Source: a virus
Lineage: Duplodnaviria > Caudoviricetes
Reading direction: 5' to 3' (one strand)
IMG/VR virus record: IMGVR_UViG_3300032296_001124
Span: 1 to 35,908 of that record
Length of the DNA stretch: 35,908 nt
A model generated the notes under the pieces. It searched no databases. It worked only from the letters and a program-made list of their open reading frames with translations, and was not told the DNA's origin. The position numbers and the translations under genes were made by a program. This document shows, in pieces, positions 9,101-27,183 of the stretch; within the stretch, counting starts at the first letter, position 1, and each line of letters begins with the position of its first letter.

Positions 9101-9202
9101 TATGCTGACATTGACTTCCCAACTATTGCTGCTACCACAACGCCTTATGTCAGCCCACTAGCACCAGCACTACTGGTTAATGTAATTCCAGCAGGCATGT
9201 AA
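6155..9202 (+). CDS. Long tail fibre / receptor-binding protein with internal repeats
   Basis: 1015 aa; GD[IVL].[IV]NG.D repeats; C-terminal C1q/BclA-like beta-sandwich (G.Y.I..SLQ...IDFWLRKNG.DV). Confidence 0.82.
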   Translation: MANKNFQVKHGLEVGATVTADAATGNITTSGDVAVNGGDLTTNQTAFNLLNTTATTVNAFGAATTLELGAATGTTNINNNLEVDGDVTIDGGDLIVSTSTFNLANTTATTLNIGGGATTAVVIGNSAGEIDTPSDVQQTGNKSFRQGDGPYSGSTDILRDNNGNAIEGYLASNNNMTTADSALVVRTYGGTTPTSGVAYGNAGKLFMQGSRGTSASPLAINSGNGIGLISFSSNLGTTAGAGTGTGFTTDNSPVLFQPGAIYSFANQNHRQTLQATFTGSISGTTLTVTAVASGVITAGHEVRGTGFDPTNAGYTILYQSSSTAPSNALGSTGTYELWASPGTIASSTMTTVQVQAGSQMRFQQAHQFWPLNANTFQSLTFTTAQGGVLNAPYTSVRFRQSDPYLPQATRIIREITGGNTLNIGTHGFTVAGASFTIITAGNPNGLTTGTTYFIDTIPSTTTVTLRTVSSGGGAVTGLTNGSGLFILADAAAIAANGNQTQPSNVAVAGTRGGHNYAGSYNADNNRQNDWLGEYRFTGGFSDFSSNTNTKIFGRATQDWAAGSAAGSEIGFQSIKNSTLTTYISTIGANGSTFVNDSFTMNNTLAGSMLSVDSSGNLTINGDLRVNGNDLLNSNGTTVMTMTTGTPPNVIFAGDIRINGNDILASDGNTNISLTSNTLTAFAGDIRVNGNDIQNSTGTTAITMSTGTPPNVIFAGDIRINGSDINASDGNTNITLTSNTLTTFAGDVQINGNDILNSAGTTVMTMSTGTPPNVIFAGDIRINGNDIIASDGNTNISLTSNTLTTFAGDIRVNGGDIQNPGGTNAITLTSANATTTIRGDSIALKVNAGTAATSANVDYTRTFGEFAYTNAAGFAIAAQNTIYTMPLDTTLNNSGVTIANTGDININVSGWYKIIMSLQVTLTVSNQPGQIDFWLRKNGADVANSKTQVDLLKDQKSVISMDWLVNSDGNDYWEIVYVGTTTNYADIDFPTIAATTTPYVSPLAPALLVNVIPAGM
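8010..8610 (+). repeat. Tandem 186-nt (62-aa) repeat, about three copies, each with two FAGD.R.NG.D subrepeats
   Basis: ACTGGCACTCCACC recurs at 8081, 8267 and 8453. Confidence 0.9.
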
Positions 9203-9212
9203 GGAGATTAAT

Positions 9213-9368
9213 ATGCGAAAAGTATTAGTAAAAATTGTTAATGTTGATATGGAATTTGAACTAGAAGTGCCAGAGTTCTATAGAGACGAAGACATTTATA
9301 GATTAGCTAGAATACACGCTCAGCAGTTAAGTTGCGAACAATATGTTGAGTTAATAATTGAATCATGA
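9213..9368 (+). CDS. Small hypothetical protein (51 aa, MRKVLVKIVN...), absent from the ORF track
   Basis: AAGGAG SD; ATGA overlap with the next gene. Confidence 0.7.
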   Translation: MRKVLVKIVNVDMEFELEVPEFYRDEDIYRLARIHAQQLSCEQYVELIIES

Positions 9369-10300: not shown

Positions 10301-10308
10301 TATAAATA
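10301..10308 (+). promoter_or_regulatory. Perfect T4 late promoter consensus TATAAATA driving a non-coding transcript
   Basis: Exact TATAAATA; no ORF before the next terminator. Confidence 0.7.
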
Positions 10309-10312
10309 TATT

Positions 10313-10383
10313 TGCAAAGTTTACAGACATTGCAATTTCCTATTTTGGTCAGCCCCGTTCCGCAAGGTTCGGGGCTTTTTATT
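10313..10383 (+). ncRNA. Candidate antisense small RNA 1 (anti-start codon and anti-SD)
   Basis: Between TATAAATA and a terminator; contains GACAT-TGCAATT-TCCTA, the reverse complement of TAGGA-N7-ATGTC. Confidence 0.55.
10351..10383 (+). terminator. Rho-independent terminator
   Basis: AGCCCCG/CGGGGCT stem plus TTTTATT. Confidence 0.88.
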
Positions 10384-10462: not shown

Positions 10463-10512
10463 AATACTGTTGTCAAAAGACAACATGCATTTAACAGACA
10501 AAGGAGATTCAA

Positions 10513-10797
10513 ATGCAAAAATTTACACTTAACTTAAACTCTATTAATGACAGTTTTGTAATTGAGACTGACGACAATGACACTATTAAAACAATGCGTG
10601 AGTTACAGAGTCAACTAACTTACAAACAACGACAAGACTTACTTGCAATGTTGTTGCAACGCATTGAGCGTAACTATAATGACTTTATGTCGGGTGCAGA
10701 GTCAGTGGACGATGTTGAGTTGGGCGAGTATACAAGCGACGATTTTATGACTGACTGTCTACAGGCCGCGTATACGCAACAACAAATAACTCAATAA
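10513..10797 (+). CDS. Small acidic early protein (94 aa)
   Basis: AAGGAG SD; has its own promoter. Confidence 0.8.
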   Translation: MQKFTLNLNSINDSFVIETDDNDTIKTMRELQSQLTYKQRQDLLAMLLQRIERNYNDFMSGAESVDDVELGEYTSDDFMTDCLQAAYTQQQITQ

Positions 10798-10814
10798 GTT
10801 AGTGTAAACTAACT

Positions 10815-10885
10815 AAAAGTGTGCTGTTGCGTAAAAACAACAGCGCACTTTTTAAATTGATACAAATTGAGTTTTGTGTTATACT
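10815..10885 (+). promoter_or_regulatory. Early promoter 2: palindrome TGTTGCGTAAAAACAACA plus TTGATA-N17-TATACT
   Basis: Inverted repeat 10815-10852; -35 at 10857; -10 at 10880. Confidence 0.75.
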
Positions 10886-10933
10886 GTATTTGTTGTAGCA
10901 ATAGTGCTCAACATAACACACACAGAGGATATT

Positions 10934-11227
10934 ATGGCCAAACTTAGCAAGCAACAAATGATTGAGGATCTTATTGAACTGTATAGTAGCGATGCTACTG
11001 TGAGGGATCGTATGATCCCTCAAATTAAGAACGAGCTACAGCGTATTAACGATCAAATGCAATTGGGTGCTATTGATTGGGATTTTATGCGTTTGAGCGA
11101 TGCTTTTTATCAGCGTAATCCTAGTGCGTATTTTGCAATGCTTATGAACTACTTTTTTGCTATGCGTGATTACAATTATGTGCGCGAGCAATACAACATT
11201 AACTTTAGCAAAGTTAGTGCTCACTAA
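10934..11227 (+). CDS. Small early protein (97 aa, MAKLSKQQ...)
   Basis: GAGGA SD before ATG 10934; this start fits the promoter better than 10874. Confidence 0.8.
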   Translation: MAKLSKQQMIEDLIELYSSDATVRDRMIPQIKNELQRINDQMQLGAIDWDFMRLSDAFYQRNPSAYFAMLMNYFFAMRDYNYVREQYNINFSKVSAH

Positions 11228-11234
11228 CTAAAAG

Positions 11235-11321
11235 TGTGGCAATTTAACAACTCAATAACCCTACGGCAAAGTCAAATATTGACACAAAATAATAGGTATA
11301 AATTCGGTTTGAGCATATACT
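11235..11321 (+). promoter_or_regulatory. Early promoter 3: degenerate palindrome, TTGACA (11279) and TAGGTA-N17-TATACT
   Basis: TGTGGCAATTTAACAACT at 11235-11252; TATACT at 11316-11321. Confidence 0.5.
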
Positions 11322-11780: not shown

Positions 11781-11847
11781 AAGTGTGCTGTTGCGTAAAA
11801 ACAACAGCACATTTTTAATTGACACAAAATACACTCGGTGCTATACT
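11781..11847 (+). promoter_or_regulatory. Early promoter 4: palindrome TGTTGCGTAAAAACAACA plus near-consensus TTGACA-N17-TATACT
   Basis: Palindrome core 11789-11806; -35 at 11819; -10 at 11842 with extended TG. Confidence 0.85.
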
Positions 11848-11880
11848 AACATTATTGTAAACACACAGACGGAGATCAAA

Positions 11881-12045
11881 ATGGCATTTCTTACCAAAAC
11901 CGAAGCAGAAGCATACTTGCGTGAGTATTACGAAGACAACTACGATGACGAGACATTTGAAGAATTTCTTTCAATATTAGAAGATCAACTTGATATGGTC
12001 AGTCCCGAAATGGTCTACGCTTTTACAATCTTCACAGAGGCTTAA
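11881..12045 (+). CDS. Very acidic small early protein (54 aa, MAFLTKTEAE...)
   Basis: GGAG SD before ATG 11881. Confidence 0.75.
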   Translation: MAFLTKTEAEAYLREYYEDNYDDETFEEFLSILEDQLDMVSPEMVYAFTIFTEA

Positions 12046-12196: not shown

Positions 12197-12344
12197 ACTG
12201 CGACTTGAACTAATGATCCGCGAACAGATAAAACAGCATGGTGATGAGTTTTATGCTGAGCTTGCTCGTATATTAGAAAAGATACAAAACGAAATGGCAA
12301 TAGACACTCGCGGAAAACCAAGTCTAAGCATAGTAAATTTGTAA
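12180..12344 (+). CDS. Small hypothetical protein (54 aa, MKITDKLRLE...), absent from the ORF track
   Basis: Open frame overlapping the previous gene and ending just before the next TAAATA. Confidence 0.6.
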   Translation: MKITDKLRLELMIREQIKQHGDEFYAELARILEKIQNEMAIDTRGKPSLSIVNL

Positions 12345-12352
12345 TTTAGGCA

Positions 12353-12358
12353 TAAATA
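12353..12358 (+). promoter_or_regulatory. TAAATA late-type promoter of sRNA 2
   Basis: CATAAATA immediately before a structured non-coding unit. Confidence 0.65.
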
Positions 12359-12362
12359 GTTT

Positions 12363-12512
12363 TACATTAGAACAGGCGTTGATCTTTTTGTATGCCATAA
12401 AAAAATCCTTTGTCTGTTTGGGTTGATTAATCTACTTCCCGTTGCCAGTTCTAATGTAGATATTGGTGCAACGCCAGTATCCAGAACCCGCCCAAGTGGC
12501 GGGTTTTGTTTT
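12363..12512 (+). ncRNA. Candidate antisense small RNA 2 (anti-start codon and anti-SD inside a large loop)
   Basis: 11-bp stem 12363-12373/12448-12458 enclosing GCCAT-AAAAAAA-TCCTTT; second hairpin 12460-12480; terminator. Confidence 0.6.
12485..12512 (+). terminator. Rho-independent terminator
   Basis: AACCCGCC-CAAGT-GGCGGGTT plus TTGTTTT. Confidence 0.85.
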
Positions 12513-12553
12513 GACTTTTATATCTAAAAGTGTTAAAATTCTGTTTACGATGA

Positions 12554-12563
12554 TAAATAAATA
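12554..12563 (+). promoter_or_regulatory. Overlapping TAAATA cores upstream of the 12584 operon
   Basis: TAAATAAATA, then AAGGAG SD. Confidence 0.6.
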
Positions 12564-12583
12564 GGCATACAAAGGAGACAATA

Positions 12584-12931
12584 ATGATAGCAAGAGGACC
12601 ACATGTAGTAGCCAAAATCCTGCACAAGGAAAGCAAATATGGCGGCTCAATCTACACAATAACTTTTATCAGTAATCACGCTGAGATCACGCACACTTAT
12701 GTTGATCCAGACAATCGCAACGCTAAAGTTTGGGCAGAGATCATTGACTTATATGATCGTGGCTATGGCATTGTGCTAAGTGATCTACGCTACAAACTCA
12801 AAGACAACAAACTAACTTACAAAAACAACACCAACGAGCCGTTGGTCAATGCCGATTCAAAAGTTAGAATATTATACGCCACGCCCAATAGACAGGAAGT
12901 TATAGACCATCTTTATGAGGTATTAAAATGA
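12584..12931 (+). CDS. Hypothetical protein (115 aa)
   Basis: AAGGAG SD; ATGA-coupled operon. Confidence 0.8.
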   Translation: MIARGPHVVAKILHKESKYGGSIYTITFISNHAEITHTYVDPDNRNAKVWAEIIDLYDRGYGIVLSDLRYKLKDNKLTYKNNTNEPLVNADSKVRILYATPNRQEVIDHLYEVLK

Positions 12932-14036: not shown

Positions 14037-14474
14037 ATGGCAAACAACAAAATTACTATTGGTGCTTGGACTTGGGATACAGAACTACTTCTAAGTAAAA
14101 TCAAAGTTTATGGACCTGACGACTGCTGGGACTGGACAGGATCAACTAGTCCCAATGCAAATCTATTTGGCGCAAGAAAAAACGACAAACCACAAATGAC
14201 ACAGGCCAGTAGATTGATATGGATGACCATACACGGAGAAGACATCGCAGAACTAGAAGTAAAACATAGCTGTGGCAATAGATTCTGCACCAATCCCAAA
14301 CACATGGCCACACAGCCTAATCACTTGCGCTATCACAGAGATGGACGCCCCTTGGGTCAGCCCAAACCTAAACCACGAGAACCAGAAATAAAAACACGCA
14401 GATTGATACCTGTAGTAGAAGATTTAGTAGCAAAACAACCTAAACAAAAACAGCAACCATGGTGGAAGATATGA
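14037..14474 (+). CDS. HNH (His-Me finger, HNH_3-like) endonuclease
   Basis: CW.W.G...ASRLIW...H.CGNRFCTNPKHM motif. Confidence 0.85.
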   Translation: MANNKITIGAWTWDTELLLSKIKVYGPDDCWDWTGSTSPNANLFGARKNDKPQMTQASRLIWMTIHGEDIAELEVKHSCGNRFCTNPKHMATQPNHLRYHRDGRPLGQPKPKPREPEIKTRRLIPVVEDLVAKQPKQKQQPWWKI

Positions 14475-14725
14475 GCAGACCAGAACCCACAATAATAGCA
14501 GAAGTTGATTTGCCTAATGGACAACTTTGGCAAATAACACTGGCAGACACTGTTTACATAGTAACATATCAAGGACAGCCTGTGGGACTGAGAGTAACAG
14601 AAGGCATGGGCAATTTCAAATATAAAAAGATGAGTTATACTAATTTGGGCAGTGCTCGTAGACAAGCAAGACTGCTGAACCACAGATTCAACTGTGAAGA
14701 TTTTGAAGTAATGAGGATGGCATGA
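14471..14725 (+). CDS. Hypothetical phage protein (84 aa, MSRPEPT...YKKMSYTNLG)
   Basis: ATG 14471 overlaps the HNH stop codon (ATGA). Confidence 0.75.
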   Translation: MSRPEPTIIAEVDLPNGQLWQITLADTVYIVTYQGQPVGLRVTEGMGNFKYKKMSYTNLGSARRQARLLNHRFNCEDFEVMRMA

Positions 14726-26144: not shown

Positions 26145-26576
26145 ATGACCACAGTAGAACAACTAACACAAGTATTCAATGACAACTTTGTTGCGTATTA
26201 TCGCAGCCATGTAGCACATGTCAACATAGTAGGACGCAACTTCTTCAGTGATCATGAGCTATTGGGTGGCATTTACGAAGAACTGCAAGGTCAAGTAGAT
26301 GTGCTAGCAGAATTATTACGCAGCCTACAGGCATTCATGCCCAATGACATTCATGCTGTAATGATGGACAGCAAAATTATGCCAGATCCTATTGAAGGTG
26401 ACAGCGATGAACTGCTGACATTTGTTAAAGATGATTTACTGCAACTCAAAGGCTGCTACGAAGAACTAATGGTAGTAGCCGAAGCAGAAGGACATGAAGA
26501 AATAGCCAATTACGCACAAGAACGCATATTGGCTTTGGCTAAACATGTTTGGATGTTGGATTCAACTTTAGGTTAA
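26145..26576 (+). CDS. dps: Dps / ferritin-like protein
   Basis: H..H.N..G..F...H......Y.......D..AE ferroxidase signature and C-terminal K..WML. Confidence 0.88.
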   Translation: MTTVEQLTQVFNDNFVAYYRSHVAHVNIVGRNFFSDHELLGGIYEELQGQVDVLAELLRSLQAFMPNDIHAVMMDSKIMPDPIEGDSDELLTFVKDDLLQLKGCYEELMVVAEAEGHEEIANYAQERILALAKHVWMLDSTLG

Positions 26577-26653: not shown

Positions 26654-27154
26654 CTATGTCGTGCTCAACTCTACACGCTTATATGCATAACTACCACGCA
26701 CATCAAATCCTGCGCGAGCATGTAGTTTCAAAAATCCATCTTGCTCACGGCGCATGGTAGTGCTACAAATTATAGGACATTGAATCTGCTGTGCGAACAA
26801 TTGCCATATTTCTATCATATCTTTTACCAATTCTACTCTTAGTTTTGTTGATAGATCTAGGCCCACATGCGCCATACGAACCACAATCATTGGATCATCG
26901 CTCCATGGAGCCCGTTCGCCCGCTCGCGCCCAAGTGTATGCCAACAGTGCCTGATTGCCATCCCTTGCAACATATAGCAGTTCAGTATTGGGTTGATAGA
27001 ATTGTGTTACTACAGCAAAAGTAATATTTCTACTGTAGGCTATTGGTTCAGGACGGAAGATAGTGTCTATCTCAGTTTGGAAATGTTGTTCTGCCATGTT
27101 GACGATGTCTTGCACATCCGTGCCCACAGCAGGTCGCCAGTTATGTCTAATCAT
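26654..27154 (-). CDS. GNAT-family acetyltransferase (only minus-strand gene; start MIRHNWRPA...)
   Basis: WRPA...D...I start; ...FLKLH.RAGF motif; AAAGG SD; own TAAATA promoter on the minus strand. Confidence 0.72.
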   Translation of the reverse strand: MIRHNWRPAVGTDVQDIVNMAEQHFQTEIDTIFRPEPIAYSRNITFAVVTQFYQPNTELLYVARDGNQALLAYTWARAGERAPWSDDPMIVVRMAHVGLDLSTKLRVELVKDMIEIWQLFAQQIQCPIICSTTMRREQDGFLKLHARAGFDVRGSYAYKRVELSTT

Positions 27155-27183
27155 TGCTTTGCCTTTCAAAAGTTATCACACTG

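Follow-up and report, generated by a model that had tools for sequence, protein, structure and literature searches.

A predicted antisense RNA with a TAAATA box and a closing stem in a putatively helper-dependent podophage

A TAAATA-led structured element in a complete podophage

We analyzed a stretch of 35,908 nucleotides (nt), positions 1 to 35,908 of the IMG/VR virus record IMGVR_UViG_3300032296_001124 (hereafter "the window"), and in it a predicted small RNA (sRNA) element at positions 12353-12512 of the plus strand, here called sRNA 2. The window is the complete 35.9 kb genome of a podophage with direct terminal repeats. Its genes include those for an SU10-type capsid and portal, a large terminase, a tail fibre, a holin-like protein, an HNH nuclease and Dps. 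The motif TAAATA occurs 17 times on the plus strand versus once on the minus strand, mostly just ahead of virion genes.

One of these boxes (12353-12358, +) opens the element and is its putative late promoter, from which the RNA would start at about 12362-12364. The predicted RNA (12362-12512, +) is ~150 nt long. In the minimum-free-energy fold an 11-bp closing stem, with its 5′ arm at 12363-12373 and its 3′ arm at 12448-12458, encloses two hairpins and is followed by a third hairpin (12459-12481) and an intrinsic-terminator-like hairpin of 11 pairs (12482-12508) whose U tract reaches 12512. The fold has a z score of -6.2, and none of 200 shuffled sequences was equally stable. Hairpin 1 (12385-12403, +) displays the YGCCA loop of the family described below; its bases 12392-12398 are antisense to a Met-Ala start, the loop is also antisense to GGC, and its GCC is unpaired with a probability of 0.98. 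Hairpin 2 (12404-12424, +) combines an anti-Shine-Dalgarno UCCU with an 11-nt loop (12409-12419) complementary to an ACAGA-type leader of early genes. The third hairpin has a GCAAY loop that is common to several relatives, its role unexplained. Box, stem, hairpin and terminator all lie and fold as the original prediction, made from the letters of the window alone, had placed them. Both complementarities that it named are also exact: 12406-12418 is the reverse complement of 10493-10505, upstream of the ATG at 10513, with the loop of hairpin 2 making up most of these 13 nt, and 12387-12396 is the reverse complement of 12564-12573.

A second TAAATA-led hairpin with a terminator, sRNA 1 (10303-10382, +), is without a long closing stem and has a z score of -4.85. 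Its loop differs by one base over 11 from that of the module in the related genome G010, which hints at a common type of target. The two sRNAs had been described as bracketing an island of early genes, which is overstated. Beyond sRNA 2 a sigma70-like promoter (12511-12539) is followed by more small genes, up to ~13.7 kb; sRNA 2 therefore lies inside the region and does not close it.

An Rfam search of the window returned five weak matches, none of them over 12353-12512, and no family (C4 included) at its gathering threshold; among ten loci from relatives the single match was one tRNA. Nothing describing this RNA or phage group turned up in the literature covered, which mostly excluded subscription journals. 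From its sequence we consider the element to be real, conserved and structured, and as yet undescribed.

A family of modules with covarying closing stems

We surveyed 154 loci anchored on a gene for a 721-amino-acid virion protein, the window among them, and obtained 26 distinct sequences in which a stem follows TAAATA. Twenty-four of these stems were kept and the module of G015, taken from its whole genome, was added, giving a set of 25 architectural homologues; L055 (a coding repeat), L010 (a leader with a Shine-Dalgarno (SD) sequence) and two non-module stems from the whole-genome set were left out. We defined the family by TAAATA, a stem of at least 9 pairs that begins within 1-5 nt, a YGCCA loop, UCCY 4-14 nt later and a terminator, and the window element has every one of these parts. 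Sixteen of 21 genomes examined whole contain the module, in one copy each and usually adjoining a variable gene region. Stems of at least 9 pairs follow 27 of 623 distinct TAAATA sites, versus a mean of 3.0 in shuffled sequences and 6-8 at random positions.

The sequences of the stem arms differ between members while their pairing is kept. In a subfamily of five members, 11 of 25 pairs carry two-sided changes, a count that none of 500 shuffles equaled and that fell to near zero in slid controls, although this set is small and related, and the structure tested was derived from it. The window itself has a close-relative haplotype, found in three runs and read by hand, in which positions 12367, 12369 and 12371 are altered and the 3′ arm keeps its pairs. 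These three stem changes amount to two Watson-Crick swaps and one wobble, with no listed change in the loops, hairpin 2 included. The covariation that the original prediction had called for is present both in the subfamily and in a close relative of the window. The runs with close relatives were labelled as lake or freshwater metagenomes. No RNA data set carrying the phage was listed among public runs, which speaks neither for nor against expression.

A covariance model built from the five members also located modules on which it had not been trained, each with its start precisely at the TAAATA (E 8e-6 to 0.2). Model R2 had no match in 9 further podophage and 4 jumbo phage records, in a search without a positive control, and a scan with a loose module pattern, which sampled 2 of 64 parts, returned 121 loci with one known member and no clear new one. 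MAFFT alignments of the divergent members were unusable.

What is conserved in the modules, apart from pairing, is the YGCCA loop and an unpaired UCC(C/U)U. Within the closing stem, GCCA occurs in 19 of the 25 modules (shuffled mean 2.2) and TCC(C/T)T in 21 (shuffled mean 4.4). The two stand in antisense order, mostly unpaired, in 15 modules, against a shuffled mean of 0.2; two modules have neither, and the sense motif A(A/G)GGA is in none. The original prediction had taken CAT-N7-TCCT as the design common to the two sRNAs of the window. The motif is indeed present in both (at 12396 in sRNA 2 and 10328 in sRNA 1; the only other plus-strand site, 34167, is within the portal gene), but it is no design rule of the family: the exact spacing occurs in 4 of 25 modules and a spacing of 5-12 nt in 11, and the constant core is GCCA, not CAT.

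A terminator is present in 22 of the 25 modules. By sequence, a promoter box and a terminator without a conserved open reading frame (ORF) are what would be expected of a trans-acting base-pairing sRNA. The terminator loops of the modules are long (mean 10.7 nt; for example L014, L036, L331 and L103) and contain CAT in 11 of 22 cases, compared with 1 among 21 terminators of other kinds. Over 9-11 nt, several of them match the sequence around the start codon of an own gene close by. The terminator loop of the window is short and is without this CAT feature.

Pairing with the phage's own accessory gene starts

We scored the pairing of the window RNA with 33 gene starts of its own genome, taking accessibility into account. 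The five best were those at 10513 (-16.2 kcal/mol), 10934, 9213, 11881 and 12584, all of small accessory genes, and the capsid start scored -0.9. In a control with shuffled loops, the kind that had been proposed, none of 150 RNAs bound an own accessory start as well. Taken alone, the 13-nt complement is borderline by plain shuffling (13 of 200) and rarer when the AAAGGA core is held fixed (149 of 20,000).

The best predicted target, at 10493-10505 (+), is the leader and SD of gene 10513-10797, with 13 bp and about -16 kcal/mol net of opening costs. The others are likewise on the plus strand. At 10922-10938 the RNA would cover the SD and the ATGGC start of gene 10934-11227, which has a sigma70-like promoter at 10857-10885 upstream. 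For gene 11881-12045, behind such a promoter at 11819-11847, the predicted target (11865-11887) comprises 10 bp over the leader and SD, two of them G-U, and 7 bp over the ATGGCAT start. At 12564-12575, 12 bp (two G-U) would form with the leader and first SD bases of gene 12584-12931, and at 9194-9212, 19 bp (several G-U) with the SD region of the small gene 9213-9368. The island genes have a common ACAGA-type leader, matching the second loop, and two of them begin with ATGGC, matching the first. The three sigma70-like promoters that score best in this region each precede one of the five best targets; a generic model of sigma70 promoters added no information. Neither Atlas nor PHROG searches assigned a function to the target genes of the window or to ORF 14471-14725 (see below).

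Several observations touch on the control of this region. Gene 12584 has both the sigma70-like promoter at 12511-12539 and a TAAATA box (12554-12559), and its predicted target would be the extreme 5′ terminus of the late transcript. Palindromic repeats that are nearly identical occur in two pairs, 10817-10852 with 11781-11816 (directly upstream of the two best sigma70-like promoters) and 10796-10823 with 11211-11238, and are possible operators or terminators of the early island. In other TAAATA-led leaders (L002:7653, L023:4572 and L051:4517) an anti-SD strand folds in cis over the SD of the next gene in a long hairpin, which suggests a second way to mute early genes on late transcripts.

Across genomes, we swapped the RNAs among 16 genomes and compared their fit to starts of their own and of other genomes. 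The cognate fit was better at accessory starts (p=0.0037; 0.0057 with the window excluded; 0.0002 for single helices). This excess was absent at the conserved virion genes of the same 16 genomes (p=0.98) and disappeared when loop-shuffled RNAs were used (8 runs, p 0.07-0.87). Nine further loci, two of them close kin and all seen before the test, gave p=0.011. Pairings of -9 kcal/mol or better make up 12 of 238 RNA-start pairs for own accessory genes (5.0%) and 1 of 231 for own core genes (0.4%), compared with 53 of 3570 for accessory genes of other genomes (1.5%) and 59 of 6816 for jumbo phage genes (0.9%). Long perfect matches to own genes, in separate lineages, include 14 nt at a methyltransferase (G009), 11 nt at a primase and 13 nt at a gene of unknown function (G013), and 10 nt at a primase (G006); in G003 and G008 a perfect match of 11 nt spans the start codon. 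Two modules have no CAT, and in these the GCC loop shows a 9-nt match to a ribosome site of the AAAGGC type. An early reading, in which the target was external and the own matches were due to chance, was abandoned after the accessibility-aware and cognate tests. The phage's own capsid or terminase was also considered as target and rejected, as neither covaries with the loop.

A putative helper, competing readings and implications

The window carries its own capsid, portal and terminase without a detectable DNA polymerase or late sigma factor, the combination expected of a virion-complete satellite. Models for late sigma factors, PolA and PolB had no match in 25 podophage records (the window and 24 related ones); late-sigma models matched 3 of 4 jumbo phage records. 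Genes for primase/helicase, DNA methyltransferase, glycosyltransferase and GroES-like proteins vary among the relatives (G001-G021), and the window is without a recognisable replication gene. ORF 14471-14725 (+) is common to PA5oct-like jumbo phages and Phosso (38-39% identity, E 6e-11 to 2e-10) and is a likely pointer, from sequence, to a helper of the PA5oct-like type. In jumbo relatives TAAATA stands upstream of the homologue of this ORF at 18 of 18 distinct starts and upstream of the tail tube gene at 33 of 33; in PA5oct, when the genes examined were sorted by annotation, it precedes 18 of 42 structural and 16 of 78 other genes. PA5oct also has four annotated noncoding RNAs (PMC7318152). 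Because the family has no detected late sigma factor, PolA or PolB, has TAAATA boxes and shares a gene with jumbo phages, we infer a putative helper-dependent phage that borrows a late sigma factor.

Searches for the helper through other genes added little. For the tail fibre no relative was found, Dps led to family members and one distant cyanophage only, and the GroES-like gene of a relative was uninformative. The Dps/ferritin-like gene (26145-26576) is kept in 18 of 21 genomes, and all 56 viral loci found for it are on contigs <40 kb. Beside it lies the only conserved minus-strand ORF of the window (26654-27169, 171 amino acids), whose family occurs in 18 of 21 genomes and has no PHROG match.

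Known systems offer partial parallels. The C4 antisense RNA of P1/P7, like the window RNA, is a small phage RNA with a closing stem, inner stem-loops, a conserved scaffold and variable loops; acting in trans, its loops base-pair with mRNAs of the phage itself, one at the ribosome-binding site and the other conferring specificity. RNase P releases C4 from a precursor, and the RNA serves to maintain lysogeny (PMC5320573). The window element, as modelled, shares the closing stem around stem-loops with exposed antisense loops. Unlike C4, it comes with a late-type promoter and a terminator of its own and would operate on several unlinked accessory genes during the lytic switch, and it has no Rfam match at threshold. 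A primary transcript seems more plausible for it than an RNase P precursor because the promoter box is directly upstream. SviR of the Vibrio cholerae satellite PLE is a helper-induced satellite sRNA that peaks late and has separate seeds, as proposed here, and it pairs with 5′ untranslated regions both in operons of the satellite itself and in genes of the helper (bioRxiv 10.1101/2022.04.08.487710). However, PLE is integrated and makes use of helper particles, whereas the window element is in a virion-complete podophage with terminal repeats. The likeness to SviR is one of description; helper targets were shown for SviR and not found for the window RNA. By analogy, then, the window RNA would work as C4 and SviR do, while by test it is no member of an Rfam family.

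In genome logic the window phage resembles MiniFlayer. MiniFlayer and MulchRoom also have their own capsid and packaging genes and terminal repeats, lack genes that are key to replication, and cannot do without a helper, a large virulent phage (PMC10690885). They differ as Streptomyces phages of 15-17 kb for which the consulted part of that source gives neither a regulatory RNA nor a borrowed late sigma factor, and the helper dependence of the window phage is presumptive. In the T4 late promoter read by gp55, a short box of the TATA type precedes the start by roughly one turn of the helix (PMC2988020), and the window boxes, ahead of virion genes and of the RNA, are alike in form and position. 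In contrast to T4, the window phage has no detectable gp55-like protein, and its box is TAAATA with a variable preceding base.

On balance, we lean towards a trans-acting antisense RNA that represses the phage's own early genes and is likely transcribed only if a co-infecting jumbo phage of the PA5oct-like type provides a late sigma factor. The early genes would be read from sigma70-type promoters. A jumbo helper would then supply its late sigma factor and the TAAATA promoters would fire, that of the RNA included. The closing stem may protect the RNA and present its loops, which would pair with early translation starts and so block ribosome loading. At the transition from early to late expression the RNA would act as a re-programmable off-switch for accessory genes, since its scaffold, the closing stem, is conserved and its loop seeds are lineage-specific and follow the gene starts of each locality. 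We infer from the sequences a late promoter in TAAATA that the helper reads, synthesis of the RNA, early genes as its targets and repression of these through pairing. The conserved architecture, the covariation and the statistical excess of pairing at own accessory starts back the earlier proposal of a late RNA silencing early genes, of which expression and repression remain predicted.

Several results weigh against this interpretation. The module was not found in 5 of the 21 whole genomes. Covariance models from relatives hit the window at the right coordinates without significance (E 0.39 as the second hit of R1, 0.21 as the top hit of R2), and because of this weak match we treat the window as a divergent member, placed by architecture and motif. 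The pairing scores come from a simplified custom energy script rather than IntaRNA, and the cognate test is post hoc, devised after matches had been seen. With one genome per clade (n=9) its p values range from 0.017 to 0.13 (median ~0.05), and an own accessory start that reaches -9 kcal/mol or better is present in only 7 of 16 genomes. Plain longest-complement tests are at chance in most relatives: 6 of 27 fall below 0.05, three of these from the motif of one clade. Two close relatives have an altered 12564 site, and the loops persist in close relatives in which the island with three of the targets is replaced or skipped. The PA5oct paper, in its accessible part, gives TATAATA and TTGAC motifs, not TAAATA (PMC7318152). 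Finally, variable own targets leave the invariant YGCCA loop unexplained.

A further reading is a two-way translational switch in a family of virion-complete satellite podophages, turned on by the late sigma factor of a jumbo helper, in which lineage-specific loops silence the early genes of the satellite and the invariant GCCA loop with the anti-SD dampens the helper's structural mRNAs with Met-Ala starts; we regard this as possible and put it forward tentatively. A purely anti-helper weapon appears doubtful. Here the YGCCA loop and UCCUU would pair with late helper mRNAs that start SD-N7-9-AUGGC (capsid, sheath, tube and baseplate), and own matches would be secondary or involve helper-derived genes. 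The loop does stay constant while own accessory genes turn over, SviR is a precedent, and of 33 distinct starts of the jumbo tail tube gene 31 have ATGGC, all of them together with AGGA and TAAATA. The GCCA-TCC fragment also gives high ranks to the starts of jumbo capsid, sheath and wedge genes, and eight terminator loops are antisense to Met-Thr-Lys, with which a small-terminase-like gene of jumbo phages often begins (a weak PHROG match, E 0.0097). However, jumbo pairings are at background (the 59 of 6816 above, with 11 of 1696 at late starts), late and other jumbo starts differ in rank at p=0.054, and SD plus ATGGC is generic, found at 41 of 909 jumbo starts and at the phages' own capsid gene in 16 of 20 genomes without covariation. 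Exact target patterns are scattered over 119 and 83 viral loci with no dominant family. The original prediction had offered a helper mRNA starting ATGGCA as an alternative target, and these scans and the background level do not bear it out, although the jumbo pairing test is weak because the four jumbo records may not be real helpers.

An unlikely reading is that of a decoy, in which YGC(C/A)A-type loops and UAUCCU strands titrate an RNA-binding protein or nuclease of host or helper. Similar loops (YGCCA, YGCAU, GCAAY and UGCCG) recur two to four times per module, GCAAY is without a start-codon reading, and 5 of 19 GCCA loops, by eye, are without a following T. A decoy does not predict that GCCA and UCC are ordered and spaced as an antisense pair in 15 of 25 modules, nor the own-start matches of 10-14 nt, nor a cognate excess that is lost on loop shuffling. 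Repression of host mRNAs with strong SD and Met-Ala starts, such as those of defence genes, is very improbable: the seeds are presumably generic enough for many bacterial starts, but in 185,579 species the full window pattern has 13 matches, scattered over genomes that are unrelated.

Least credible of all is that the functional unit is the 24-codon minus-strand ORF (12324-12398), whose translation was a case named as refuting the original prediction, or that an inverted duplication of a start site left the element behind as a relic without transcription. A good SD and ATG speak for the ORF. In 12 other GCCAT modules, however, the equivalent frame is 2 codons long in six and consists of 5-42 codons of unrelated sequence in the others, and indels of one base at 12374 put it out of register in two close relatives. 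The stems covary, and it is the plus strand that carries the promoter box and the terminator. We judge this ORF a by-product of the antisense design. A minus-strand RNA as a CsrA-type sponge was rejected because the promoter box and the terminator are both on the plus strand.

If the antisense reading is right, the modules would form a covarying RNA family new to Rfam, and the phage would sense its helper through a borrowed late sigma factor, turning virion genes on directly and early genes off through the RNA. Few sRNAs of phages or satellites have known targets; here predicted targets, seeds and compensatory changes are specified. The family would then be a natural case of re-programmable antisense control, with a fixed scaffold and swappable loop seeds.
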